In this document: one piece after another, positions 3,115 to 33,397 of the stretch
Layout of the letters: each line of letters begins with the position of its first letter
Position numbering within the stretch: position 1 is the first letter of the stretch
Source of the DNA: Patescibacteria group bacterium
GTDB lineage: Bacteria; Patescibacteriota; Microgenomatia; Levybacterales; UBA12049
Assembly: GCA_038062115.1 (NCBI GenBank)
Contig: JBBTXS010000001.1
Location: forward strand, 10,607 to 74,606
Reading direction: 5' to 3'
Length of the DNA stretch: 64,000 nt
Notes under the pieces: generated by a model
Databases searched by the model: none
Seen by the model: only the letters and a program-made list of their open reading frames with translations
Told to the model about the DNA's origin: nothing
Position numbers and translations under genes: made by a program

Positions 3115-5571
3115 ATGAAAGAAAAGCCCCAATTTACTCAAAAACTCTATAGAATTCAGGGAATGCACTGCGCTTCCTGTGCTGTTTTAATTAACACAGT
3201 TCTACAAAAACAAAAAGGAGTAGAGTCTGTAAATGCAAGTTTTGGAGCTGAAAAACTTTCTATTTCATTTGATCCAAATGTTATACCCGAGGAAAAAGTA
3301 TTGGGTTTTGGTAAATCTTTGGGATACTCTTTTGTGTCGGAGGAGTCAAGAACTGAGGATGAATTTAAAAAAGAAAGGGATGCTCATATCAGAGAGCTTA
3401 GAAATAGAACTATTGTAAGTTTTCTTCTTTCAAGCCCTATTATTGCATATTATATGGCAGTTCACATGTTTAATCTTAAGCATGTCCACGCAATAATGGT
3501 TGGAAGTTTATTTATAGATTTAAACTGGATTTATTTACTAATGACAATTCCAGTTCAATTTTGGGTGGGATGGATTTTTTATAGAAGCGCCTGGACGGCA
3601 TTTAAGGTTGGTTCAACCTCGATGGACACGCTTGTAGTTTTGGGAACGAGTGCTGCATTTTTTTATAGTCTTATTGGCTTTCTGTTTTCAACTACCTATG
3701 GAAAGCTACAAACACTCTGGATAGGACTTGATCATCCTTTTTGGGAGTCATCTGCTGCTTTAATGTCGTTTTTAATTATGGGCCGCTTCCTTGAAGCTGT
3801 GTCTCGTGGAAAAGTTTCTGAGGCAGTAAGTAAATTGTTGCAGCTTGCACCAGAAAAAGCAATTTTACTTAAAAACGGTGAGGAAAAAGAAATTCTGGCG
3901 AGCGACTTAAAAAAAGACGATATATTTATTGTTAAGCCTGGAAGTAAAATTCCAACAGATGGAATAATTATTAAAGGCGAATCGGCATTGGACGAAAAAA
4001 TAGTAACAGGAGAATCAATGCCAGTCAATAAAAAAGTAAACGACGAAGTAATTGGGGGTACAGTAAATTCGTATGGATTGCTTCACTGTAAAGCAACTAA
4101 AGTTGGAAGCGAGACTTTACTACACCAAATAGTTAGAATGGTTCGCGAGGCTCAAGCAACAAGAGCACCGCTTCAACGCGTTGCAGACTGGATATCCGAA
4201 CGATTTGTGCCAACAGTTATAGTTTTAAGCCTTATCTCCTTTAACTATTGGTATTTTATAAAAGCAGACGGTTTTACTCCATCGCTTCTTTTTATGGTTG
4301 CAGCACTTATTATTTCTTGTCCATGTGCTTTGGGATTAGCAACTCCTATTGCTACTATGGTTGGTACAGCAAAAGGCGCTGAGTCTGGAATATTAATTAA
4401 AGGCGGAGAGGCTTTAGAAAAAGCGCATAAGATTACAGCGGTTGCGTTCGATAAGACAGGAACTTTAACAAAGGGAGAACCAGCTGTGACAGACGTCATT
4501 GCAATTAATTCCTCTGTCATTGCGAGGAGCGAAGCGACGAAGCAATCTCACGAGATTGCCACGGGTTCTTCGAGCCCTCGCAATGACATATTGAGGCTTG
4601 CTGCAGTTGCCGAGAGAGGTTCGGAACACCCCCTCGCTCAAGCTGTAGTTAAAAAAGCAAAAGAACTAAATTTAGAAGTTCCGGAGCCTGAAAACTTTAA
4701 AACAATTTCAGGGATGGGAGTTTCATCAGACTATAAAGGGAAACAAATTATGGTTGGGAATCAGCTTTTTATGGAGAAAGAAAGCATCAATATAAACGAG
4801 ATTGCTTCTGAGGTAAATAGACTTAGAGCTGAGGCAAAAACTGTGGTCTATGTTGCGTATGATAAAAAAGTTATTGGATGTGTTGCCCTTGCCGATACGC
4901 TCAAGAAACATTCTATTGCTGCGATAAATGCTCTAAAGAAGAGAAAAAAAGAAATAATTATGATTACTGGCGATAACGAACAGACTGCTCATGCAATTGG
5001 AAAGCAGTTGGGAATAGACAAGGTTTATGCCAATGTGTTGCCTGAGAAAAAAGAAGAACTTATTGAGTCTATTAAGAAAGAGGGTAAGGTAGTTGCTTTT
5101 GTTGGGGATGGGATAAATGATTCGCCAGCACTGGCCAAGAGTGACTTGGGTATTGCTGTTGGGTCTGGTACTGATGTTGCAATAGAGACTGGAGAAATAA
5201 TTCTTGTTCGCGATGATCTTCGAGATGTGGTTACAGCGATTGATCTTTCACAAAAGACAATCTATAAAATCTGGCAAAACTTTTTCTGGGCTTTTGTTTA
5301 TAATATAGTTGCGATTCCTATTGCTGCAGGACTGCATCTGGTATTTACTCGACACAGTGGGATTCCGGCGGGCTGGGTAACTTACCTCGGAGATGTTTAT
5401 TCTCTGATTCCAGTTATTGGCAATGAGGTTTCTTCTATTTGGCTAAATTTGTCCCAATCTGCTTTAAGGCCGGAAATCGCCGGATTTGCCATGGCATTTT
5501 CATCAGTCTCGGTTGTCCTCAACTCCCTTCTCCTTCGCCTCTACAAAAAACCAAAATTCGCGGATTCTTGA
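3115..5571 (+). CDS. copA: Copper-translocating P1B-type ATPase
   Basis: The protein carries an N-terminal HMA domain (GMHCASCA), the CPC motif (SCPCALGLATP), DKTGTLT, the HP motif (SEHPLA), TGDN and GDGINDSPAL. An SD-like AAGGG precedes ATG 3115. The ORF-track start at 3097 lies inside the repeat. Confidence 0.95.
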   Translation: MKEKPQFTQKLYRIQGMHCASCAVLINTVLQKQKGVESVNASFGAEKLSISFDPNVIPEEKVLGFGKSLGYSFVSEESRTEDEFKKERDAHIRELRNRTIVSFLLSSPIIAYYMAVHMFNLKHVHAIMVGSLFIDLNWIYLLMTIPVQFWVGWIFYRSAWTAFKVGSTSMDTLVVLGTSAAFFYSLIGFLFSTTYGKLQTLWIGLDHPFWESSAALMSFLIMGRFLEAVSRGKVSEAVSKLLQLAPEKAILLKNGEEKEILASDLKKDDIFIVKPGSKIPTDGIIIKGESALDEKIVTGESMPVNKKVNDEVIGGTVNSYGLLHCKATKVGSETLLHQIVRMVREAQATRAPLQRVADWISERFVPTVIVLSLISFNYWYFIKADGFTPSLLFMVAALIISCPCALGLATPIATMVGTAKGAESGILIKGGEALEKAHKITAVAFDKTGTLTKGEPAVTDVIAINSSVIARSEATKQSHEIATGSSSPRNDILRLAAVAERGSEHPLAQAVVKKAKELNLEVPEPENFKTISGMGVSSDYKGKQIMVGNQLFMEKESININEIASEVNRLRAEAKTVVYVAYDKKVIGCVALADTLKKHSIAAINALKKRKKEIIMITGDNEQTAHAIGKQLGIDKVYANVLPEKKEELIESIKKEGKVVAFVGDGINDSPALAKSDLGIAVGSGTDVAIETGEIILVRDDLRDVVTAIDLSQKTIYKIWQNFFWAFVYNIVAIPIAAGLHLVFTRHSGIPAGWVTYLGDVYSLIPVIGNEVSSIWLNLSQSALRPEIAGFAMAFSSVSVVLNSLLLRLYKKPKFADS
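4516..4587. repeat. GTCAT...ATGAC palindromic MITE-like element inserted in frame in copA
   Basis: The element is 72 nt (24 codons) with perfect 12-bp terminal inverted repeats GTCATTGCGAGG / CCTCGCAATGAC. An internal hairpin is GCAATCTC-AC-GAGATTGC. It encodes VIARSEATKQSHEIATGSSSPRND. Confidence 0.8.
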
Positions 5572-5986: not shown

Positions 5987-6174
5987 TAATTATGCATCTT
6001 TTAATAGCTCCTAGGTTTTGGGTTCACTATAGAACTAAAATTAATTTTAGTAAACATAATATGAATTATAGATGTTGTGTTTAAATATCAAAAAGGGTTT
6101 CGCGCAGATTTTGCTGGAGCAAAAATTGTGATGTTGTGTAAAGTTCTATATCATTTGAAAGGAATTTAAAAAAT

Positions 6175-22116: not shown

Positions 22117-22190
22117 TCTACTTTGATCTGCTTGACTTCTGTGAAAAATGCATATAAAATATTTTTGTTTTCACAAAGAAGGTCATATTT

Positions 22191-22442
22191 ATGGCACATA
22201 CAAAAGCTCAAGGTTCGGTAAAAGGAAATAGAGATTCTATTTCAAAACGACTAGGAATTAAGCTTTATGCAGGGCAGAAAGCTTTTACTGGCAATATTAT
22301 TGCTCGACAAAAAGGTAGTAAGTTTTTTCCAGGAATAGGTGTTTCTATAGGTCGCGATTTTACGCTTTTTGCTACACGTAATGGGGTTGTTAATTTTAGA
22401 ATCTTGAAAGGCAAGAAGATCGCCGAAGTAAGAAATAATTAG
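22191..22442 (+). CDS. rpmA: 50S ribosomal protein L27
   Basis: MAHTKAQGS...GNIIARQKGSKFFPG is the canonical L27 pattern. Confidence 0.95.
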   Translation: MAHTKAQGSVKGNRDSISKRLGIKLYAGQKAFTGNIIARQKGSKFFPGIGVSIGRDFTLFATRNGVVNFRILKGKKIAEVRNN

Positions 22443-22465
22443 TTAATCAAATAGTTGCCCTTTAT

Positions 22466-23311
22466 ATGGATAATATAGACGAAAGAATATTTGAATTGGA
22501 TGTCAATTTACTTCAGTCGAATCCCCTTCAGCCGCGAGGAATTATACCGCCTCAATCTCTAAACGAGCTTGTTGATTCTATAAGAGAGCAGGGAATTTTA
22601 GAGCCATTAGTTATTGCTAGAACTCCAGCAGGATACCAAATAGTTGCAGGGGAAAGGCGCTGGCGTGCTGCTAAGATACTTGGGATTCAAAAAGTACCAG
22701 TGGTAATTAAGGAAACAACACCTCAGGGGATGCTTGAAATGTCTATTGTGGAAAATGTTCAGCGAGAAGACTTAAACCCAATAGAAAGAGCGCAAGCTTA
22801 TAAAAGATTAATAGACGACTTTGGTCTTGCAACAAACGAAGTAGCAAAAAGAGTTGGCAAAAGCTCCCCAACAATATCAAATACAATAAGACTCTTGTCT
22901 CTTCCCGATGCAATTAAAGACGCATTGGTTGCTGGAGTCATTACAGAAGGGCATGTTCGTCCTCTCATATCTTTAGGCGACACGCAATTGATGCTTGATC
23001 TATTTAAAAAGATTTTGCGAGATAATTTTACAGTGAGAGCAACAGAAGATAAAGCTCGCGAAATTAAAGGCGAAGTTCAAAAAAAAGAGCCTCATGCTAT
23101 ACATGATAGACTTTGGATTCCCGAACTTGACGAAATGGCTAAAAATTTAGAGAAAAAGCATAATTTGGGTAAAGTAACTATATATCAATCCAGAAGTTTA
23201 GGAAGAATAGTTATTGTAGTTAGGGGAAGCGTTGAGGAAAGTGGGTCTAAAATTAAAGAAATTTATAATGTCCTTATGCAAGAATCTACAGCTCGCGGAT
23301 CCTCAGGATGA
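22466..23311 (+). CDS. parB: ParB/Spo0J chromosome-partitioning protein
   Basis: The GERRWRAAKILG arginine patch, an HTH segment and the NP..PR N-terminal box are present. No parA is adjacent. Confidence 0.9.
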   Translation: MDNIDERIFELDVNLLQSNPLQPRGIIPPQSLNELVDSIREQGILEPLVIARTPAGYQIVAGERRWRAAKILGIQKVPVVIKETTPQGMLEMSIVENVQREDLNPIERAQAYKRLIDDFGLATNEVAKRVGKSSPTISNTIRLLSLPDAIKDALVAGVITEGHVRPLISLGDTQLMLDLFKKILRDNFTVRATEDKAREIKGEVQKKEPHAIHDRLWIPELDEMAKNLEKKHNLGKVTIYQSRSLGRIVIVVRGSVEESGSKIKEIYNVLMQESTARGSSG

Positions 23312-23335
23312 AAATGGTTTATAACCCAGATTCAG

Positions 23336-23896
23336 TTATTTATAAGGATTTTTAATAAGACTCATAGAATCTAGCGGCCAGTAGGCAAAAAATGACTCTC
23401 CTATTATATTTTTTCTAGGAACAAAACCCCATTCTCTTGAATCCGAGCTATAAAGCCTGTTATCTCCTAAAACAAAATAATTTTCATCTGTTACAGTTAT
23501 TTCTTGCGATTCTTTAAGAAATGATCCTGCGTTAGTTTCAATTTCTCGTTTTATGTAAGAGATTTCATCAAGCTTTTTGCCATTAAGATAGATATTTCCG
23601 TCTTTAATAAGCACTCTATCCCCAGGGACGCCGATAACTCTTTTTATATAGTCTTTTTCTGGATCTTGAGGGGATTTGAATACAATTACAACGCCTAGTT
23701 TTGGGTCGTGGAAATGAAGACTAATTATATTGGTAAGAATATATTGATTATCACGAAAATTAGGATACATAGACTCTCCCTTTACCTGAAAAGGACGAAA
23801 GAAAAAAATATATATGACAAGAAATACACTAGCAGCCAATAAAAGGCTTTGAATTGTGTCGATTAAGAAGTTGTAAATTTTGCGTATTATAAACAT
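23336..23896 (-). CDS. lepB: Signal peptidase I
   Basis: GESMYPNF (the catalytic Ser box), KRVIGVPGD and GDNRLYSSDSREWG are present. Confidence 0.9.
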   Translation of the reverse strand: MFIIRKIYNFLIDTIQSLLLAASVFLVIYIFFFRPFQVKGESMYPNFRDNQYILTNIISLHFHDPKLGVVIVFKSPQDPEKDYIKRVIGVPGDRVLIKDGNIYLNGKKLDEISYIKREIETNAGSFLKESQEITVTDENYFVLGDNRLYSSDSREWGFVPRKNIIGESFFAYWPLDSMSLIKNPYK

Positions 23897-23925
23897 CTAA
23901 TTTATTGTCGTAGATTTAGCACCTT

Positions 23926-23954
23926 TTGTCAATGAGGGCTATTTATGATAAGAT
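23926..23954 (+). promoter_or_regulatory. Sigma70-like promoter candidate for tRNA-Val
   Basis: TTGTCA (23926-23931), a 17-nt spacer and TAAGAT (23949-23954). The mature tRNA 5' end lies 11 nt downstream. Confidence 0.4.
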
Positions 23955-23965
23955 GAGCTAAATTT

Positions 23966-24037
23966 GGACTCGTAGCTCAGCGGTAGAGCGCTTCATTCAC
24001 ATTGAAGAAGTCAGAGGTTCGAATCCTCTCGGGTCCA
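23966..24037 (+). tRNA. tRNA-Val (anticodon CAC)
   Basis: I folded the cloverleaf by hand. The acceptor stem is GGACTCG/CGGGTCC (one G-U pair). The D arm is GCTC-AGCGGTA-GAGC. The anticodon stem CTTCA/TGAAG carries loop TTCACAT. The T arm is AGAGG-TTCGAAT-CCTCT. The discriminator is A and CCA is not encoded. Confidence 0.9.
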
Positions 24038-24059
24038 CAAATCTAAAATTCTGAACAAA

Positions 24060-24083
24060 CTTTAATACTGGAAAGTATTAAAG
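24060..24083 (+). terminator. AT-rich hairpin after tRNA (weak terminator candidate)
   Basis: CTTTAATACT-GGAA-AGTATTAAAG forms a 10-bp stem, and a T-rich stretch lies ~15 nt downstream. Confidence 0.3.
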
Positions 24084-24295
24084 AAATGTTTCATTCTTTT
24101 TATATACAACGACCTACGAGGTAGCGAAGCTGCCACTTCATAGATCTAACTACCGTAACCCCCAATCCCTCGAACCATATCGCTAATTTTGTAATGCAAG
24201 ATGTCCCAAACACAAAAGTAGTGAAAAAAAGTACTAAAGAGATTATAATAAGAATGTAAATAGATCTAGAAATAGATTGATACTAAGATAAAGTT

Positions 24296-24433
24296 ATGCA
24301 TACGCCGAAAAAATCAATTATTGCCAAGCAGGCAAAAGCCTACCTATATGAAAAGCAACTCGACCATATAGTTTATAAACTCTACGGCATTACGCCGGAG
24401 GAAATTGAAGTTGTGGATAGTAATAATGAATAA
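24296..24433 (+). pseudogene. C-terminal remnant (45 codons) of an R-M / N6-adenine methyltransferase-type enzyme
   Basis: It translates to MHTPKKSIIAKQAKAYLYEKQLDHIVYKLYGITPEEIEVVDSNNE. The LD..VY.LYG(L/I)T.EEI..(V/I) ending is the characteristic C-terminus of type IIG/Eco57I-like and related methyltransferase-containing restriction enzymes. Stops lie immediately upstream, so only the stump remains. Confidence 0.55.
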
Positions 24434-24689
24434 AGACAATAAGTATACAGCCTTCAGCCATAATGAAATTGATAGATTCTTCAGGTTTTTAGAATATATA
24501 TTAATTGTATCAGCACTTTACTATCTAAGCGAGCTAAGTGGGCATATGTTGTTAAAGGTTGTTTTTTACGTTGGTTATTTCTTTTTATATGTGGAGTTAT
24601 TAAACCTATCCAGTGCACTAATAGATCCTTACTCAGAAATTAGACTTATAAAGAAGCATCGATTAATGTTTAGAATGGTAGTTTTTTAA
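24426..24689 (+). CDS. Hypothetical small membrane protein
   Basis: An 87-aa ORF with two hydrophobic helices and no recognisable motif. Its start overlaps the remnant stop. Confidence 0.3.
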   Translation: MNKDNKYTAFSHNEIDRFFRFLEYILIVSALYYLSELSGHMLLKVVFYVGYFFLYVELLNLSSALIDPYSEIRLIKKHRLMFRMVVF

Positions 24690-24888
24690 TTTCAGCTATC
24701 TTTACTGCAGGACTACAGGTTGGCATTAATATTATAATTTATGAACATCTTCTAATAAAATAGTTTTGTATTTTTATCGCCAAAGAAATTACAATTGTGG
24801 AAGGTAAAAATGACACACTTTGATTTATCACCGGCGGAGAAAATTACGAAATGATAATGGGGACAGGTAGAGTACAATTAAATTAACT

Positions 24889-25902
24889 ATGAAAAAAATA
24901 CCAGACAATCAAATCTCTTTCTATCAATCGACGGATGGATCGGTGAATATTGAGGTACTGTATGCCGAAGAGAACATTTGGCTTACCCAAAAGAAGATGG
25001 CAGAGCTTTTTGATTGCTCATCCGATAATATTTCACTTCATCTAAAAAATATCTATAACGAAAAAGAATTAGATCAAAGTTCAACTACCGAGGATTTCTC
25101 GGTAGTTCAAAAAGAAGGCAGCAGGGAGGTTTCAAGAAGGATTACTTTTTTTAGCTTGGAAGCCATAATTGCTGTTGGCTATCGGGTTAATTCGGAAAGA
25201 GGCACACAGTTTCGTCAATGGGCAACGGGGATTTTGAAAAACTATATCCATAAAGGATATGCTCTGGATAGTAACCGTATGAAATATGGCTCCCGTTTTA
25301 GCACCAGGTATTTTGATGAACTGTACGAAGAAATCAAAGACATTCGTACGAGCGAACGGATGATCTATCAGAAAATTACCGATATTTACGCAACAGCTAT
25401 CGACTACTCACCAAAAGCATACGAGAGCAAACAGTTTTTCGCTACTGTCCAAAACAAGCTTCATTTTGCGATCACAGGAGAAACCGCCGCAGAAATAATT
25501 ACCAACAGGGTAAGCAGTAAGAAAGACAAAATGGGGCTCACTTCGTGGCGAAAGTCTCCGCAGGGTAAAATTATGCCAAGTGATGCGACAATTGCCAAAA
25601 ATTATTTGGACAAAAAAGAACTCACTCGTCTTAATCGTATCGGCAATATGTATTTAGATTATGCGGAAATGCAGGCGGCGAGAGGAAAGGCAATGACGAT
25701 GAAAGATTGGACAGAAAAATTGAACGCTTTTTTGAAGTTTAGCGAATATGAGATTTTGACCAACGCCGGCAGGATCAGCCACATTGTGGCAGAAACTCTT
25801 GCCCTTGCTGAGTACGAAAAATATAAAAAAGTACAGGACAAAAACTACATCTCCGATTTTGATCAGGAGATTAAAAAACTTTTGAAGAAAGCTAAGAAGT
25901 AA
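24889..25902 (+). CDS. RhuM-family protein
   Basis: The N-terminal pattern ISFYQSTDGSVNIEVLYAEENIWLTQKKMAELF ... AVGYRVNSERGTQFRQWATGILKNY matches the conserved core of RhuM-family proteins. Confidence 0.8.
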   Translation: MKKIPDNQISFYQSTDGSVNIEVLYAEENIWLTQKKMAELFDCSSDNISLHLKNIYNEKELDQSSTTEDFSVVQKEGSREVSRRITFFSLEAIIAVGYRVNSERGTQFRQWATGILKNYIHKGYALDSNRMKYGSRFSTRYFDELYEEIKDIRTSERMIYQKITDIYATAIDYSPKAYESKQFFATVQNKLHFAITGETAAEIITNRVSSKKDKMGLTSWRKSPQGKIMPSDATIAKNYLDKKELTRLNRIGNMYLDYAEMQAARGKAMTMKDWTEKLNAFLKFSEYEILTNAGRISHIVAETLALAEYEKYKKVQDKNYISDFDQEIKKLLKKAKK

Positions 25903-26606
25903 TGCCTAAATATTACAACCCAAACCGAAAACGAAATCTTTATGATCCAAGCTCAAAAGAGCCATATAGATTAAGTCGGACAAAGATAGATCTTTTTATT
26001 GAATGTCCACTGTGTTTTTGTTTGGATAGAAGATTAGGTGTTGCACAACCTTCTGGTCCATCTTTTGCTCTTAACACTGCTGTAGATAAACTTCTTAAAA
26101 AAGAATTTGATATTCATAGAGCAAAAGGAAGTTCTCACCCACTGATGAAAAAGTATGGAGTCGGTGCTATTCCTCTTGCTCACCAAAAAATCGATCAATG
26201 GAGAGATGCTTTGGGCGGTGGCATTACTTATCTTCATAGTCCCACAAACTTTATGATTACAGGCGGAATTGATGATATATGGATAAATTCAAAAGGAGAA
26301 CATTTTATAGTTGATTACAAAAGTACTTCAAAAGCTGGAGAAGTAACTTTAGATGATGAGTGGAAAATTTCTTACAAAAGACAGACCGAGATTTACCAAT
26401 GGTTGTTTCGTCAAAACGGATTCAAAGTTTCAAACATAGGTTATTTTGTTTATTGCAATGGAGATACAGATAAAGAAGCTTTCGATGCAAAATTGGAGTT
26501 TAAAATAAAAATTATTTTATACGAAGGAAATGATAGCTGGGTTGAGAAAACAATTTTAAGAGCACACGAATGTTTACAAAGCAATTTGCCCTCTGATTTC
26601 TGGTAA
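25902..26606 (+). CDS. Cas4-like PD-(D/E)XK nuclease (C-terminus apparently frameshifted)
   Basis: It has an N-terminal Cys (ECPLCF), the GGIDD...VDYKS (D...(D/E)xK) core and the QTEIYQW motif. The ATG overlaps the RhuM stop (TAATG). The expected terminal CxxC (GKDCDFCKY) lies in the +1 frame at 26602-26652. Confidence 0.65.
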   Translation: MPKYYNPNRKRNLYDPSSKEPYRLSRTKIDLFIECPLCFCLDRRLGVAQPSGPSFALNTAVDKLLKKEFDIHRAKGSSHPLMKKYGVGAIPLAHQKIDQWRDALGGGITYLHSPTNFMITGGIDDIWINSKGEHFIVDYKSTSKAGEVTLDDEWKISYKRQTEIYQWLFRQNGFKVSNIGYFVYCNGDTDKEAFDAKLEFKIKIILYEGNDSWVEKTILRAHECLQSNLPSDFW

Positions 26607-26766
26607 AGATTGCGATTTTTGTAAATATAGAGAGGCAGTCTCAAATATGTAAAATGAGACAGTTTGATCCCGATTAAATCGGTACAGGTTTATCATCATC
26701 AACAATAGGGCTATTCATCCTCCTTCTCCGTCAGTTGGCGGATTCGGTGGGGTTGAATATTTATAT

Positions 26767-27822
26767 ATGACCATTATTTTTTTCACTCGGCTTTTTTATC
26801 CCCATATTGGCGGCGTTGAGAAACATGTTTTGGAAATTAGTAAAATTATTATAAAAAAAGGTTATAAAGTTACAGTTATTGCCGAACAGCACGATCAAAA
26901 ATTAAAACTTAAAGACAGTATTCAGGGTATAGAAATCTATAGAATTCCAGTTGGAAAAGACGATTGGTTCAAAAAATTTAGAATATGGTTTAAATTATGG
27001 AAATATAAAAATCTGATTAAAACAGGAGATATTATCCATTGCCACGATGTTTTTTTCTGGTATCTCCCTTTTAGATTCTTATATCGAAATAAACCTATTT
27101 ACACCACGTTTCACGGATACGAAGGAAATAACTTGCCATCAAAAAAAGCCATTTTCATGCACAAGATTGCAGAGAAACTATCAAAGGGCAATATATGTAT
27201 TGGCGATTATCTAAAGAAATGGTATGGGACTAAGCCAGATTTTGTGACATATGGCGGCGTAGAAGTATTAAGTATTAAGTATAAAGTATTAAGTATAAAT
27301 AAGGAGAAAAAAATAAAGATTGTATTTGTTGGTCGGCTAGAACAGGAAACGGGAATAATGGAATATCTTAAAGCGCTAAAAATTCTTAAAGAAAAAGGAT
27401 ACGAGCTTCATATGGATATCTTAGGAGATGGATCACGGCGCGGACAAGCTGAGAAGTTTTGCAATGCAAATAAATTAGATGTTTGTTTTAAGGGATTTGT
27501 AGATAATATTGCTGGTTATTTACTTGAATCAGACTTTGTTTTTACGTCTAGATACCTTGGGATATTAGAGGCGTTTGCTAATAAAAAATTAGTTTTTGCA
27601 TTATATAATAACGAAATAAAAGAAGATTATCTTAAGATGTCCTCTTTTGCAAAACACATGATAATAAGTAAAGATGACGACAGCCTTGCATTGACGTTTG
27701 TCAATTTTATAAAGGATCAGCAAGTAAAGAATAGAATATTAGAACGTGCTTTTGAATGGGTAAAGAGTCAGTCTTGGGATAAAGTAAGTCGGTTATACAT
27801 AGATCTTTGGAGAAGAAAGTAA
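26767..27822 (+). CDS. Glycosyltransferase, GT-B fold (GT4-like)
   Basis: The N-terminal FYPHIGGVEKHV and the VFVGRLEQETG start of the C-terminal Rossmann domain fit GT4. Confidence 0.75.
   Translation: MTIIFFTRLFYPHIGGVEKHVLEISKIIIKKGYKVTVIAEQHDQKLKLKDSIQGIEIYRIPVGKDDWFKKFRIWFKLWKYKNLIKTGDIIHCHDVFFWYLPFRFLYRNKPIYTTFHGYEGNNLPSKKAIFMHKIAEKLSKGNICIGDYLKKWYGTKPDFVTYGGVEVLSIKYKVLSINKEKKIKIVFVGRLEQETGIMEYLKALKILKEKGYELHMDILGDGSRRGQAEKFCNANKLDVCFKGFVDNIAGYLLESDFVFTSRYLGILEAFANKKLVFALYNNEIKEDYLKMSSFAKHMIISKDDDSLALTFVNFIKDQQVKNRILERAFEWVKSQSWDKVSRLYIDLWRRK
27264..27298. repeat. Heptanucleotide tandem repeat (AGTATWA)x5 inside the GT4 gene
   Basis: AGTATTA AGTATTA AGTATAA AGTATTA AGTATAA, read directly from the sequence. 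It encodes LSIKYKVLSI at the interdomain linker. Confidence 0.9.
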
Positions 27823-28616
27823 TGAAATCAAAATCAGAATTTTTTTTCAGACGATATTTGCATATTGCTCCTTTAGGTTTGGCTCTTTGGCGATCGGTTG
27901 AGGCTAGGCATTTATCAACAGTTAACTTAAAACGTCCTATCCTTGACATAGGGTGCGGTTGGGGAGAGTTTGCCGAGGCGTTTGGAGAAAAAATTGATAT
28001 GGGGGTTGATATTGCACCTCGCGATTTATATGTTGCGGCAAAAGGAGGCATGTATAAAAATCTTACGCTTGCCGATGCTCGCGATCTACCATTTGCAGAG
28101 AATAGCTACTCATCGATTATCTCAATTAGCACATTTGAACATATTTCAAACGCTGAAAAACTTTTGAAAGAGATGTATCGCGTGCTCAAGCCTAATGGGG
28201 TTCTTGCTATTACAATGGAAACAGAAGAAGTTGATAAGAATACCTTTTACCGTCCATTGCTAAAAAAGATGGGTTTTGGTTTTTTAAGCGATTGGCTAAC
28301 TTATGCTTATAACACAAACTTTAGTCGTCTTAACCTGCCATCAAAAGAAAAATGGATACGAGATATTGAAAAAGCAGGATTCAAAATTGTAATGAAAAAA
28401 GATATCATCTCTCCCGCAATTACAAAGCTTTATGACTTTTTTATTGCGACCTCATGGCCTGCGCAGCTTTTTAGACCAATTATTGGGAGAAGAAAAGTGT
28501 TTAGGCCAAAATTTGCTGAAGACCTTCTTGTTAAGATATTCTTAAAGTACGTTGAAGAGGATGAAAAAATTGGCACAAATCTTTTTATAGTTGCAGAAAA
28601 AGGTATTCGTAGATAA
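27822..28616 (+). CDS. Class I SAM-dependent methyltransferase
   Basis: ILDIGCGWGEF is motif I, and the central region resembles Methyltransf_11. There is a TAATG overlap with the upstream gene. Confidence 0.75.
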   Translation: MKSKSEFFFRRYLHIAPLGLALWRSVEARHLSTVNLKRPILDIGCGWGEFAEAFGEKIDMGVDIAPRDLYVAAKGGMYKNLTLADARDLPFAENSYSSIISISTFEHISNAEKLLKEMYRVLKPNGVLAITMETEEVDKNTFYRPLLKKMGFGFLSDWLTYAYNTNFSRLNLPSKEKWIRDIEKAGFKIVMKKDIISPAITKLYDFFIATSWPAQLFRPIIGRRKVFRPKFAEDLLVKIFLKYVEEDEKIGTNLFIVAEKGIRR

Positions 28617-28636
28617 CCTATTGGTATCATTATAGT

Positions 28637-29101
28637 ATGGATAGCTACATTGATGTAAGTTTTCATGTGATAGTTAGCTTGCTTTTGGGTTATATTATCT
28701 TTAGACTTTTTGGCTTAAGCGATAGAAAAAGTCTTTTGATATCCTTTCTTTTTACCTTTTTGGGGGGTGTATTAATTGACGTAGATCATTTTATTGATCA
28801 TTTCTTGAGTTTTGGCATTAATTTTAATTACGATTACTTTATAAAAGGAGAGTACTTTTTAAAAAGTAATAAGGCATATATAGTTTTTCATGCGGTTGAA
28901 TACATAATTCTTTCAGGCTTACTGGCTATTCTCCTAGGAGATAGAAAAAAGAAAATGATCTTTACCGCGTTGGCATTAGGGATGCTTTTTCATATTCTGA
29001 TTGATATTTTGTTATTCCCCAATCCTATAAAGGGTTATTTTATCCTTTATAGAATGTTGAATGGTTTTAATGTCGATATGAGTAAAGGAATTTTAGAATA
29101 A
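28637..29101 (+). CDS. Small polytopic membrane protein, YdjM/DUF457-like metal-dependent hydrolase (tentative)
   Basis: It has four to five TM helices with a DVDHFIDH motif and conserved His residues. Confidence 0.35.
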   Translation: MDSYIDVSFHVIVSLLLGYIIFRLFGLSDRKSLLISFLFTFLGGVLIDVDHFIDHFLSFGINFNYDYFIKGEYFLKSNKAYIVFHAVEYIILSGLLAILLGDRKKKMIFTALALGMLFHILIDILLFPNPIKGYFILYRMLNGFNVDMSKGILE

Positions 29102-30800
29102 TAAAGATAGAAACTCCAACTAGACTAAGTAGGCTTACAAATTTTAACAGCTTGTAAATAGGAATATCTTCATAGACTACTTTTAATTCGTACAAGCCTT
29201 GAGGAGCTGAAAGGTGAATGATCCCTTTATCTGAAGGTTTAAGAGGAATTACCTTTTCGTTTACGAACGCTTTCCACCCTGGGAAATAGAGAGTATTTTC
29301 TTGAAGCAAAAGAGGGGTTTTTGCAGAAACGCTATAAATATGTTTTGTTGATGCTCTAATAAGATTTTTTATTTCTCCCTCTCCTTTTATTATTTCTATG
29401 TTGCTTTTTGGGCGTTTAGAAAACCATGGATGTTTTATGTCAATCCATTTTGAATTTGCATAAAAATGTCCTTCGCCCTCGGAAGTACTTTTCCAAAGGT
29501 TTGCTTTCAAAATGCTGTCATTAATCTCTGGAATGACTCTTCTATGGCCCCAATTTAGAATAGTATATCCAATAGTGGCAACGATTAGTACATATACAAG
29601 AACATTTCTCTTTACTAAAATTAAACTAAGAAATCCAGCTAGGATTGCAATAGAAAAAGTCAGTAACAACAAAAGACGATGAGATCCCGCTGCTTTAACA
29701 AAAGAAAAATTCTCCCATAAAAATTTTGAATAAGGAGAAATAAGAAAAAGTATTATAAAACTTATAATTAACCAAAACCTTTGATCGTTTAAGTATTTTT
29801 TAGCCGTTTTTTTTAAAAAAAACAAAATAAAACTTGCTATAACAACAAAAATTTGTGTATAACCGATCAAAAAAGATATTTGTCCGATTGGTCCTTGAAA
29901 TAAAAATCCCGCTCTCCATGGAGAATAGAATAATTCAAAAACTTGCGGAAAATATACTGTTGTCACCGGAGCTTTTTGAATGTAAAGATAGGAGTTAAAT
30001 ATAAAAGGAGCAAGCCAAATATAAAGAGAAAGAATTGTAGTAATCATAAAGACATAGATATTTTGCATGAGTCCATTTTTAGCACGATGTTTGTTCAAAA
30101 AAAATATATATGGGGCTATAATGCTTATGGCAAAAAAACCGATTATTGCATGGGACATAATTAGAAGAGAAAGAAAAGTTCCAGCCCACAATAAAAAGGT
30201 AAAATCTTTTTTTTCATAATACTTTTGAATAAAAAAAAATATTAGCGGGAGAATTGTAAATGCCAATATTTCTCCAATTGCTATCTTAAAATGAATGTCA
30301 ATTAAGTGATAGGGGGTAAAGATATAAAATATAGAAGCAGTAAAAGCGGCTAAACTATTTTTTAATAATTTTTGAGAGAATATATACATAAAAATTCCAG
30401 ACAAAATAATATTAAGAGCTAAGAATATTTTCATACTTTCGATAAAACCTAGTCCCAAAAAATGCAAAAAAGATAAAAGATAATAGGGCAATGGGTAGTT
30501 GAAAATAAAAAGCGGATAGCCGTAGGTTGCGTTTAAATCTTTTGCCCAGGATGGCATTATATTTCTATCTATCAAAGAGTCATAGAATGCCATACTTCTA
30601 TAAATATGTATATTAAAATCCCCACTTTCATAGTCGCCATTTCTAAAAATACTTATGATTGGCAATATCGAAATTAGTATCAATAAAAAAAATAAATTAA
30701 TTTTCTGTTTTGGGAAAATGAACTTATAAATTAATAAGCCACTAATTAATATAAGTGAAGAAGCAATATTAACTACAATCATTCTATACGGATCAAGCAT
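29067..30800 (-). CDS. Large polytopic membrane protein, PTPS-related / GT-C-like
   Basis: The protein has more than 12 TM helices. The first-loop pattern GDYESGDFNIHIYRSMAF...PSWAKDLNATYGYPLFIFNYPLPYY resembles the membrane PTPS-related family (COG5617-type). Confidence 0.55.
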   Translation of the reverse strand: MLDPYRMIVVNIASSLILISGLLIYKFIFPKQKINLFFLLILISILPIISIFRNGDYESGDFNIHIYRSMAFYDSLIDRNIMPSWAKDLNATYGYPLFIFNYPLPYYLLSFLHFLGLGFIESMKIFLALNIILSGIFMYIFSQKLLKNSLAAFTASIFYIFTPYHLIDIHFKIAIGEILAFTILPLIFFFIQKYYEKKDFTFLLWAGTFLSLLIMSHAIIGFFAISIIAPYIFFLNKHRAKNGLMQNIYVFMITTILSLYIWLAPFIFNSYLYIQKAPVTTVYFPQVFELFYSPWRAGFLFQGPIGQISFLIGYTQIFVVIASFILFFLKKTAKKYLNDQRFWLIISFIILFLISPYSKFLWENFSFVKAAGSHRLLLLLTFSIAILAGFLSLILVKRNVLVYVLIVATIGYTILNWGHRRVIPEINDSILKANLWKSTSEGEGHFYANSKWIDIKHPWFSKRPKSNIEIIKGEGEIKNLIRASTKHIYSVSAKTPLLLQENTLYFPGWKAFVNEKVIPLKPSDKGIIHLSAPQGLYELKVVYEDIPIYKLLKFVSLLSLVGVSIFIILKFLYSYRH

Positions 30801-30838
30801 GATGGTATAATATAATTTACGAAGTAAAAGAACAAGTT

Positions 30839-33397
30839 ATGAAGGTATCTTTTATAGCAACAGTTTTAAATGAAGAAAAGACAATCGATGACTTTCTAAA
30901 GTCTATTTTTTACCAATCACGAATTCCAGATGAAGTAATTGTTGTGGATGGAGGAAGTACCGATGCTACGGCATCGGTAATCTCAAATCTCAAATCTCAA
31001 ATCTCAAATAAACGAATAAAGTTTAAATTTATCATAAAGAAGGGAAATAGATCGGTAGGGAGGAATGAGGCGATCAGAAAGGCTAACAACGAAATTATTG
31101 TTTGTTCTGATGCTGGATGCGTTTTGGACAAGAATTGGGTAAAAAATGTAATCGAACCATTTTTTGACTCAGGAGTAGATGTTGTGGCAGGGTATTATAA
31201 AGGAAAAGCAAATTCTATATTTCAGAAATGTTTGATCCCCTATGTCTTAGTGATGCCAGATAAAATTAATCCTCAGAGTTTTCTGCCAGCAACGCGCTCC
31301 ATGGCTTTTAGAAAATCTGTATGGGAAAAAATTGGAGGATTTCCAGAAGAATTTTCCTATAATGAAGACTATGTTTTTGCTCAAAAATTAAAAAAAGCTG
31401 ACGCTAAAATAGTTTTTGCTAGAAATGCTATCGTTTACTGGATACCAAGAAAAAACTTTAAAGAAGCATTTATTATGTTTTTCTGCTTTTCCCTTGGAGA
31501 TACAGGGGCTGGAATTTATAGATCAAAAGTTTTGCTTTTATTTGCAAGATACTTAGTCTTGCCTTATTTGTTATTTTTGGCAGTTGTTTATAAATCTACT
31601 ATTCTATCATTTTTTATAACGCTGTCCTTACCTATTTATGTAATATGGGCGATAGTTAAAAATTATAAATATGTAAAAGACAAAAAGGGTTTATTTTTTC
31701 TTCCTTTAATACAATTTACATCAGATTTAGCTATAATTTTAGGAACATTTGGCGGTTTCATAAAATATGTAAGTGTTAACTCGCTATTTAATGTGATTAG
31801 AAAAAATAAGACTGTAAGTATTATTATTGGAATATATATTCTTACAATGTTATCAGTTTTAAACTGGGGCATCCCAAATCCTAATCACCCTTTTTCGTAT
31901 CATATGGATGAATGGCATCAATTGCAGGCAGTGCGCGCAGTTTTTAAATACGGAACGCCAAATGTTGAGGGCGCAGCTAATGGAACAATGTTTCATTTTT
32001 TTCTCTCGGGTGTTTATCTTCTGCCATTTATTATGTTAGACATAGTAAACCCTTTTGCAATAAAGTCAGCTATTGGAGCACTTTTAGTGCAGGAAAGATT
32101 ATTCCAGATCATGAGGCTAAATACCCTCTTATTTGGTATAGCATCGATTATACTAATTGCAAAAATTGCAAAAAATTACTTTAAAATTAATCCATTTATT
32201 GCAGCATTTATTTTTACAGTAACACCTATTTGGCTAATTCTTAGCAATTACTTCAAATACGATATTGCGCTCATTTTTTGGATATTACTTTCTATGCTTT
32301 TTACTCTTCGATTTTGTCAAAAACCAACCCTGGGAAATTTAATAATGGCCTCAGTATTAAGCGCATTTGCCTTGTCTTCGAAAATTAGCGCTTTGCCAAT
32401 TGTATTAGTTTTAGTTTTTTCATTTATGCTATTTACTCCAAAGGCTCACAAAAGTTACAAAAATTTGTTCATTGCCTTATTAGTCTTCTCCTTTACCTTC
32501 GCATTGTTTGGAATACCTGATTTAGTTTTTGGAAAAGGAAACCTATTTGGGTATTTTTATTCCAATGTTTTTACGGTTCCCAAGCTTAGTAGTAATTACA
32601 TTTATGGCAATTGGCTTTATTTATTTTTCTACTCGTTTATATTGGAATTTGGTCACACGCTATCTATTTTATTTGGGTTAAGCTTAATCTTTTGGCTTAT
32701 AAATTTTATAAGAGCCATAAAGAATAAAACATTGAGTCATAAGAAATATGAATTGTTTATTTTTATTGCTTTTGTCATTTATCTTATTAGCCTTCTTCCT
32801 CTTAAAATATATGCGACAGGCAATAGGGCACTTGTACTACTTCCTTTTATGGCTATAATGACTGGATCTTTTTTACAAGTGTTTCTTAAACGGAGAAAAA
32901 AAGTTAGTATTCTTATATTAGCATTGCTTTTTATTCTGCAATCATTCGAATCCTTCTCTTGGGTTTATATGAAATGGGCGAAAAGTCCACAAGAAGAAGC
33001 ATCCATTTGGATTGCGAAGCATACTACACAAGGTACAACAATTGGAATAGAAAACATTCCCATTTATCAATCGCTGCCCGATATTATTGTTAAAGAATTT
33101 TATTTTAAAGAATATAATCAGGATAAAAATAATTTATTTAAATATGAAGTAATCGATAGTAAAACAAAAAATTTGCCAAGTGTAATTGTTGTTTCAAATG
33201 GCAATGGTTCTTTGCATTACGAAAGAAATTCTTCTAAAAAAAACCTGGTAGTTCGTATCCAAAAGGAAAACTATAAACGTGCCGCTGTGTTTATGCCAGA
33301 TTTTACTTTTTTTAGATTTTTTGGTACAGAACAAGGATTTTATTTTTTGCCATTGGTTGCTTCTCCGCTAAGCATTGAGGTGTACAGAAAAATCTAG
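30839..33397 (+). CDS. Fusion protein: GT2 (GT-A) glycosyltransferase domain plus GT-C-like polytopic membrane domain
   Basis: The N-terminal ~230 aa carry VSFIATVLNEEKTI, VIVVDGGSTDAT and CSDAGC. They are followed by ~600 aa with many TM helices and an MDEWHQ loop motif resembling the PMT/ArnT DE motif. Confidence 0.75.
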   Translation: MKVSFIATVLNEEKTIDDFLKSIFYQSRIPDEVIVVDGGSTDATASVISNLKSQISNKRIKFKFIIKKGNRSVGRNEAIRKANNEIIVCSDAGCVLDKNWVKNVIEPFFDSGVDVVAGYYKGKANSIFQKCLIPYVLVMPDKINPQSFLPATRSMAFRKSVWEKIGGFPEEFSYNEDYVFAQKLKKADAKIVFARNAIVYWIPRKNFKEAFIMFFCFSLGDTGAGIYRSKVLLLFARYLVLPYLLFLAVVYKSTILSFFITLSLPIYVIWAIVKNYKYVKDKKGLFFLPLIQFTSDLAIILGTFGGFIKYVSVNSLFNVIRKNKTVSIIIGIYILTMLSVLNWGIPNPNHPFSYHMDEWHQLQAVRAVFKYGTPNVEGAANGTMFHFFLSGVYLLPFIMLDIVNPFAIKSAIGALLVQERLFQIMRLNTLLFGIASIILIAKIAKNYFKINPFIAAFIFTVTPIWLILSNYFKYDIALIFWILLSMLFTLRFCQKPTLGNLIMASVLSAFALSSKISALPIVLVLVFSFMLFTPKAHKSYKNLFIALLVFSFTFALFGIPDLVFGKGNLFGYFYSNVFTVPKLSSNYIYGNWLYLFFYSFILEFGHTLSILFGLSLIFWLINFIRAIKNKTLSHKKYELFIFIAFVIYLISLLPLKIYATGNRALVLLPFMAIMTGSFLQVFLKRRKKVSILILALLFILQSFESFSWVYMKWAKSPQEEASIWIAKHTTQGTTIGIENIPIYQSLPDIIVKEFYFKEYNQDKNNLFKYEVIDSKTKNLPSVIVVSNGNGSLHYERNSSKKNLVVRIQKENYKRAAVFMPDFTFFRFFGTEQGFYFLPLVASPLSIEVYRKI
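30980..31007. repeat. Heptanucleotide tandem repeat (ATCTCAA)x4 inside the GT2 domain
   Basis: Four perfect 7-nt units read directly from the sequence. They encode ISNLKSQISN at about codons 47-56. Confidence 0.9.

Follow-up and report, generated by a model that had tools for sequence, protein, structure and literature searches.

RhuM-family proteins have been proposed to carry a toxin domain that acts together with restriction-modification (R-M) systems (Anantharaman et al. 2013, PMC3710099). The family is also listed by PADLOC as the single-gene defence candidate PDC-S05, and one member, on its own in E. coli B, is reported to reduce the plating of T7 and T5 about 1000-fold and that of T4 about 10-fold (bioRxiv 10.1101/2024.09.26.614923). 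Solo Cas4-like nuclease genes are over-represented in candidate phyla radiation (CPR) genomes, where their role in repair or defence is unknown (Hudaiberdiev et al. 2017, PMC5704561). Here we describe a locus at which the two kinds of gene adjoin. It lies in a stretch of 64,000 nucleotides (the window) from contig JBBTXS010000001.1 of a Patescibacteria group bacterium (assembly GCA_038062115.1), directly downstream of a tRNA-Val gene. An earlier note on this DNA had proposed that the RhuM gene and the nuclease gene form a two-gene system within a decayed defence islet.

We read the locus as a small, partly decayed accessory islet with a stand-alone RhuM gene and, beside it, a decaying nuclease gene that would be no partner of RhuM but an anchor for, or a hitch-hiker with, exchangeable defence genes; we put the probability of this reading at about 0.6. 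The anatomy described in the earlier note was reproduced in full, from the tRNA-Val, through some 250 bp of non-coding DNA (257 nt, 24039-24295, between the tRNA and the 45-codon ORF), the R-M stump and a small open reading frame (ORF) with two transmembrane segments, to the RhuM gene and its TAATG junction with the nuclease. The features are as follows, in window positions.

23966-24038, plus strand: tRNA-Val, anticodon CAC (ARAGORN; Rfam RF00005, 71.5 bits), the left boundary of the islet
24042-26765, strand not applicable: the whole islet, 2.72 kb, a block across which homology to the closest relative (locus L163) is broken
24296-24433, plus strand: 45-codon ORF, C-terminal stump of an Eco57I-type (type IIG) R-M enzyme, with homology over 24323-24424 (PADLOC, blastp/tblastn)
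24405-24689, plus strand: orphan ORF with two hydrophobic segments, 94 codons if begun at TTG and 87 if begun at ATG (24426), a putative gene
24889-25902, plus strand: intact RhuM-family gene, 337 aa (PF13310, PADLOC PDC-S05)
25902-26606, plus strand: frameshifted ORF of a Cas4-like (RecB-family) PD-(D/E)XK nuclease, 234 aa (PF12705; intact homologues about 251 aa)
26589-26591, plus strand: frameshift site, CCC against CC in the intact homologue, a 1-nt insertion
26590-26652, plus strand: out-of-frame 3' remnant of the nuclease, PLISGKDCDFCKYREAVSNM followed by a stop in the +1-frame translation, including the invariant C-terminal CxxC pair
26653-26766, strand not applicable: spacer in front of the glycosyltransferase gene (ATG at 26767), which marks where the islet ends on the right

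The RhuM gene and the search for a fixed partner

Searches with hidden Markov models placed both genes in the families to which the earlier note had assigned them. The RhuM protein matches PF13310 with 344.4 bits (cut-off 33.7, E 4e-103) over profile positions 1-249 of 252, and the PDC-S05 model PDLC04851 with an E-value of 7e-143 over residues 6-335; it is a member of the single-gene candidate family PDC-S05. The nuclease ORF matches PF12705 with 39.5 bits (cut-off 22, E 8e-10). RhuM is the sole intact defence-type gene of the islet. It retains every column that is invariant across 34 homologues, and an identical protein is present on four contigs. The earlier note held that RhuM genes often lie in R-M or defence loci, which stands, and that they are functionally uncharacterised, which does not, as a defence activity has been reported for PDC-S05 (bioRxiv 10.1101/2024.09.26.614923).

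Gene neighbourhoods were compared over a close set of 80 metagenome loci, in which RhuM is 80-91% identical to that of the window (65 of them with more than 700 nt of downstream sequence, 66 with more than 700 nt upstream), and a distant set of 80 loci from a viral collection (44-66% identity). No constant partner of RhuM was found over the two sets. The commonest immediate neighbour in the close set is HsdS, at 10 of 80 loci, and no neighbour cluster exceeds this count; R-M genes lie within three genes of RhuM at some of these loci (type I in 12, Eco57I-type in 3), and the other neighbours include AAA14/DUF4143 ATPases, AbiEii, SWIM proteins, RadC and tRNAs. In cultured bacteria, plasmid-borne RhuM genes lie directly beside type I hsdM and not beside nucleases. 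DNA homology between the window and the 80 other RhuM loci is limited to 24872-25903.

The same comparison, carried out from both genes, gave no sign of the fixed RhuM and Fe-S nuclease system that had been proposed. RhuM is absent within 6 kb of the nuclease at all 81 loci from different species, and was found neither at the nine loci of the nearest nuclease relatives (four relatives) nor at 14 nuclease loci from the viral collection, which amounts to none of about 104 nuclease loci. From the side of RhuM, no nuclease follows downstream at any of the 65 close loci with sufficient sequence, and none occurs anywhere at the 80 distant loci. No locus shares both DNA blocks with the window; other loci match either RhuM only (24872-25903) or the nuclease only (25902-26639). 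Regular adjacency in a conserved order is therefore lacking; a nuclease lies upstream of RhuM at 5/66 close loci, which is the reverse of the order in the window. Nor are the two genes both intact and co-evolving: the nuclease of the window is frameshifted and, between the two loci with a complete short nuclease ahead of RhuM (L145 and L155, see below), the synonymous divergence (dS) of the nuclease is 1.58 and that of the adjacent RhuM 0.018. A fixed two-gene operon of RhuM and nuclease is not supported.

The earlier note had described the two genes as translationally coupled. The RhuM stop and the nuclease start share one nucleotide at 25902 (TAATG); since start and stop overlap in 17 of the 44 same-strand neighbour pairs of the window, this carries little weight and reflects genome compaction. 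The case is a caution that tight spacing in compact CPR genomes, together with the neighbourhood in a single genome, is no evidence for a system.

The R-M remnant lies upstream of RhuM. The last 35 or so residues of the stump match the PADLOC model REase_MTase_IIG (E 3.3e-6, model positions 1107-1144 of 1148) and the extreme C-termini of PF07669 proteins at three other loci (L135, L111 and L011; E 1e-8 to 3e-7, blastp/tblastn). It lacks the methyltransferase (PF07669 / N6_Mtase) and endonuclease domains of a type IIG or Eco57I-type enzyme and is thus a remnant and not a gene; no further remnant of the enzyme was found between 24000 and 24900 in any frame. Because R-M genes are the usual neighbours of RhuM, the stump fits an original arrangement of R-M enzyme and RhuM, and RhuM most likely came with an Eco57I-type enzyme that has since been deleted to its last 35 or so codons.

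Judging from the activity reported for another member of the family, RhuM is probably an anti-phage effector that consists of a single protein and works by itself. It may be built of an N-terminal DNA-binding-like module (residues about 18-123) and the helical RhuM domain, the proposed toxin that acts alongside R-M systems. Residues 18-123 show a weak match to the phage anti-repressor Ant (E 2e-4). The AlphaFold2 model is poor, with a predicted local distance difference test score (pLDDT) of 47.7 from a shallow alignment of 34 sequences that are at least 82% identical, and is moderately confident only at residues 31-110, which form a module of a helix and a beta-hairpin. A sequence search of the PDB returned nothing meaningful for either RhuM or the nuclease. 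As one more PDC-S05 gene in bacteria with few known defences, the window gene is helpful for annotation and unsurprising.

Some further properties of the RhuM genes were observed in the course of these comparisons. The clade to which the window gene belongs (L082-L161) shows a degree of conservation that is unusual among defence or toxin genes, at 83-93% amino acid and 76-85% nucleotide identity and a ratio of non-synonymous to synonymous divergence (dN/dS, omega) of 0.07. Its host labels span Patescibacteria, Margulisiibacteriota, Nitrospirota and Chrysiogenales, and homology begins and ends at the ORF. At one locus (L111:1780-9492) RhuM stands between a protein with PLD-nuclease and SNF2-helicase domains (1069 aa) and an Eco57I-type methylase (1152 aa), in an operon that resembles an R-M system other than type I. 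A second RhuM gene or fragment lies directly beside the first at L084, L090, L127, L135 and L142, and L125 (1-1614) carries tandem RhuM genes of two subtypes, 50% and 85% identical to that of the window, around a 34-codon fragment of the nuclease.

Recurrent adjacency and the nuclease flank

The earlier note had named as a refuting outcome that the two families are not neighbours beyond this genome. For a fixed pair this is essentially what was found; it does not hold for looser association, as the families adjoin at 5 of 66 RhuM loci, in varying order and integrity. At these five close loci (L138, L145, L155, L135 and L125) the nuclease or a fragment of it lies directly upstream of RhuM on the same strand, and in two of them only fragments are present. 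L145 (312-974) and L155 (1088-1750) each carry, 12 nt upstream of RhuM, a divergent nuclease of 220 aa that shares about 51% identity with the main family; at L135 two fragments of this short type (4757-4966 and 6002-6058) precede two RhuM genes. Including the window, RhuM comes first in the window and in L125 and the nuclease first in L138, L145, L155 and L135. In half of these six cases (window, L125 and L135) the nuclease is broken; RhuM is intact in all six.

Identity between L145 and L155 jumps from about 80% to about 100% within the last 25 or so codons of the nuclease (near 900 in L145 and 1676 in L155), and identity of about 100% then continues through RhuM into the next gene. There is a recombination breakpoint inside the nuclease gene. 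The slot directly upstream of the nuclease, moreover, holds varied genes, often only 0-8 nt away (L178-L186, L001, L004, L011 and L016): OLD or OLD plus UvrD (Gabija-like), Eco57I-type R-M, SMODS/AGS-C, DUF3644, DUF6119, SMC-like and ResIII/TnsA. PADLOC gives a rough picture of these neighbours, the upstream side being dominated by three OLD proteins that match many GajA models and the downstream side consisting mostly of generic domains. The position of the breakpoint within the nuclease gene and the variety of defence genes upstream of it favour a hotspot or anchor over a partnership. Most likely, the flank of the nuclease gene is where exchangeable defence cassettes land and serves them as a homology anchor, and whole or partial copies of the nuclease may be carried along with them.

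The slot upstream of the nuclease may be a CPR defence hotspot anchored on the nuclease gene. One three-gene block, made up of two unknown genes and an OLD-family gene, is shared by L004 and L010 but lies on opposite sides of the nuclease, upstream in one genome and downstream in the other.

Several observations weigh against a nuclease that is unconnected with RhuM. If the nuclease gene is taken as single-copy and the genome as holding about 1000 genes, chance would place it directly upstream of RhuM at roughly 0.2 loci, against the five observed. The short, 220-aa nuclease type has an omega of 0.03, a sign of strong purifying selection, and was found only beside RhuM (L145, L155 and the L135 fragments), at none of the 81 genome loci. 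L125 has the TAATG junction of the window with a RhuM that is only 50% identical to that of the window, followed by the 34-codon nuclease fragment, and its DNA matches that of the window at about 90% across the junction. Both genes are absent from the closest relative, L163, so that they may have arrived together. Finally, omega between the window nuclease and the 94%-identical intact gene of L001 is 0.17 (other pairs, 0.03-0.08), which shows that the nuclease was under selection until recently.

These points would be accounted for if RhuM and the Cas4-like nuclease formed a facultative defence module in Patescibacteria, in which, for example, the nuclease senses or degrades DNA ends and RhuM is the effector, the window being a recently broken instance. 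Adjacency far above chance, the short nuclease seen only beside RhuM, at its 12-nt gap, the junction kept with a different RhuM subtype and the presence of both genes in the same indel all speak for it, as does the occurrence of Cas4-family nucleases as accessories of other defence systems, such as the Argonaute-associated ACE1 that is among the fold matches described below. We nevertheless consider such a module unlikely. Seen from either gene, the pairing is rare (at none of about 104 nuclease loci, and at some 6-8% of close RhuM loci), the order of the genes is not fixed, the nuclease and never RhuM is broken in half of the cases, and the two genes do not diverge together, as the dS values given above indicate. 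In addition, RhuM by itself sufficed for defence in E. coli (bioRxiv 10.1101/2024.09.26.614923), the slot upstream of the nuclease is shared by many unrelated defence genes, and the association is absent from plasmids of cultured bacteria.

More speculatively, there could be a lineage-specific functional tie between RhuM and the solo Cas4-like nuclease in Patescibacteria, expressed in the dedicated short subfamily 12 nt upstream and in the recurrent junctions with the main family; in a weaker variant, the nuclease would anchor an undescribed defence hotspot across CPR lineages. We regard this as doubtful. If real, such a tie would offer a first way into the mechanism of RhuM; for instance, the RhuM effector might be licensed by a nuclease that produces or detects DNA ends. 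The above-chance adjacency, the nuclease subtype seen with RhuM only and the diversity of defence genes upstream of the nuclease constitute a residual signal in a group whose defences are poorly charted.

Family and decay of the nuclease

Our reading of the islet, with a stand-alone RhuM and a nuclease that is not its partner, also rests on what kind of nuclease this is. The window copy has the residues of the PD-(D/E)XK core, DD...DYK...QxxxY (D124, D125, D138, K140, Q161 and Y165), none of which varies in the alignments. We rejected an assignment as Cas4 proper: the match to TIGR00372 (16.4 bits) is far under the equivalog cut-off of 65, and no cas genes lie nearby. PADLOC Cas4 models match only part of the protein, with E-values of 1e-4 or weaker. 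The gene table shows no cas genes over about 4 kb on each side of RhuM, no search being aimed at CRISPR arrays; the nuclease is flanked by RhuM and by the glycosyltransferase and methyltransferase genes. A model of an intact homologue that is 93% identical (pLDDT 85.7) resembles RecE, the nuclease domains of AdnA/AdnB, Cas4 (Pcal_0546 and SSO0001), MGME1, EXO5 and ACE1, the matches to RecE, AdnAB, Cas4 and MGME1 having a probability of 1.0 and a TM-score of about 0.4.

The nuclease of the window belongs to the common solo Cas4-like Fe-S nuclease family of Patescibacteria. More than 8000 matches at about 65-74% identity were found, almost all of them in Patescibacteria, and relatives occur in more than 545 species genomes. 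In 81 species the genes directly next to it mostly have housekeeping functions (HtrA-like peptidases, FtsK, glycosyltransferases, cyclophilin and tRNA synthetases), and on this ground we rejected its classification as a classic defence-island gene. The family presumably processes DNA ends in repair or recombination. On plasmids there is one distant match, with no RhuM close by. At L061 (6001-7441) two nuclease genes of the family, of 260 and 224 aa, lie in tandem.

Intact members of the family end in ...LPxxGxDCDFCxYRxA. The cysteines C35, C38, C224, C237 and C240 are invariant, and the CxxC pair is kept in 33 intact homologues. In the window, the ORF terminates before C237 and C240 and thus lacks the complete set of candidate cysteine ligands. 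The lost tail, ...ISGKDCDFCKYREAVSNM up to its stop, is still legible in the +1 frame as far as 26652. The extra C was located by DNA alignment of the window with L001 (to which homology extends up to 26639) and with L162, an independently assembled contig of the same population. The window protein alters 3 of 84 invariant and 2 of 32 near-invariant positions, and intact homologues break 0-2 invariant positions each. These features suggest that the nuclease was recently inactivated. In our reading the nuclease would be no dedicated partner of RhuM, the islet copy having been truncated and probably disabled by the 1-nt insertion.

The frameshift could in principle be an artefact of sequencing or assembly, in which case the nuclease would be intact and co-expressed with RhuM. 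It consists of a single extra base in a short run of C residues, and the gene is otherwise 93% identical to an intact homologue and has the low omega noted above. A run of three bases is not an error-prone homopolymer. The extra base recurs in L162, which comes from another sample and differs from the window at five other positions, and the copy also has the unusual substitutions at conserved positions. Two assemblies thus agree on a 1-nt insertion, as the earlier note had assumed in calling the gene frameshifted, and we consider an artefact highly improbable.

Limits of the islet and comparison with known systems

The boundaries of the islet were determined by comparison with related genomes. 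ParB places the source organism among Levybacteria-like Patescibacteria, and the closest relative found is L163 (ParB 96% identical). There the gene order is L27, ParB, signal peptidase, tRNA-Val, about 60 nt of spacer, glycosyltransferase, methyltransferase and a PTPS-like gene, the last three being counterparts of genes in the window, with tRNA-Val present in both. In blastn alignments, window positions 22131-24041 match L163 6665-8528 at 91%, ending 3 nt past tRNA-Val, and positions 26766-32293 match L163 8584-14074 at 78%. As homology ends at 24041 and restarts at 26766, the islet comprises 24042-26765, with both RhuM and the nuclease inside. This block is an indel relative to L163; it lies directly 3' of tRNA-Val and has no counterpart in this close relative. 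The right edge, previously placed at 26652, accordingly moves to 26765.

The absence of the whole block from L163 bears on a further alternative, in which the nuclease is a native housekeeping copy, only the stump, the small ORF and RhuM were inserted, and L163 lost the entire segment secondarily. Such a history would agree with a family that is near-universal in Patescibacteria and mostly found among housekeeping genes, and that often receives defence genes in its upstream slot, and with the mainly vertical inheritance reported for solo Cas4 genes (PMC5704561). The indel is bounded exactly by the end of the tRNA and the start of the glycosyltransferase, however, and includes the nuclease; two further relatives have no nuclease at this spot; the nearest homologue (94% nucleotide identity) lies in an unrelated context, with homology limited to the ORF; and a frameshift would be surprising in a housekeeping gene of which the genome has no further copy. 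A native nuclease therefore appears unlikely to us, and we retain the reading of a nuclease that belongs to the accessory islet.

The occupancy of this position differs between genomes. In a more distant relative the same spot holds GIY-YIG and NAD-salvage genes, and in another an FtsA cluster. The position after the signal-peptidase gene and tRNA-Val (window 23897-26766) thus varies among Levybacteria-like relatives (L163, L164 and the P0254 contig), and is empty in L163. The spacer between tRNA-Val and glycosyltransferase in L163 (8529-8583) resembles the 3' half of another tRNA (…GGTTCGAATCCCGATGCGCCCA), although ARAGORN makes no call; no counterpart of it was recognisable in the window.

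With the block missing from L163, an R-M stump and RhuM inside it, and RhuM in R-M and defence contexts elsewhere, the description of the locus as a decayed, tRNA-flanked defence islet holds up, and our searches agree with the earlier finding of no integrase and no att duplication. No integrase or mobility gene is present among the islet ORFs (ORF list and family-model searches), and the islet ends show no att duplication or repeat of the tRNA 3' end, the best direct repeats (12-25 nt) being at chance level. Of the marks of an integrase-mediated, tRNA-targeting island, the locus thus has the insertion directly 3' of a tRNA and lacks the integrase and the repeat of the tRNA 3' end at the far boundary. 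No tRNA fragment was recognised in the spacer at 26653-26766; the tRNA is the sole RNA that Rfam matches over the islet, and counts of promoter and terminator sites in the islet equal the shuffled expectation. AT-rich foreign DNA, which the earlier note had put forward as accessory DNA, was rejected: the GC content of RhuM (0.36-0.40) lies above that of the downstream flank (0.31-0.34).

The small ORF between the stump and RhuM is called as an 87-aa gene in the second assembly of the same organism (L162). It has no Pfam, NCBIfam or PHROG match and only a non-significant PADLOC match, and no homologue was found in the other loci besides that second assembly.

Compared with known systems, the locus shares with tRNA-adjacent defence islands an accessory block placed directly 3' of a tRNA, absent from a close relative and replaced by other content in others; it differs in having no integrase, att duplication or mobility gene, and in its small size of 2.7 kb with one intact defence-type gene. 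Its nuclease resembles the solo Cas4-like nucleases (PMC5704561) in the PD-(D/E)XK core, the N- and C-terminal cysteine pairs of the family, the length of about 250 aa and the wide distribution in CPR genomes outside CRISPR loci, whereas the window copy is frameshifted and without the C-terminal CxxC. As in the type I R-M operons described for RhuM (PMC3710099), RhuM has R-M genes close by at 15 of 80 related loci, and likewise on plasmids, and in the window it lies 455 nt downstream of an R-M remnant; here, however, the partner was an Eco57I-type or type IIG enzyme, deleted except for its last 35 or so codons, and RhuM is orphaned. The window gene matches the PDC-S05 model over its full length and, like that single-gene candidate, stands alone, with no constant partner. 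In contrast to the described member, the window gene is Patescibacterial, its defensive role being suggested by analogy; it adjoins a broken Cas4-like nuclease, and it belongs to a clade that is unusually conserved across several phyla.

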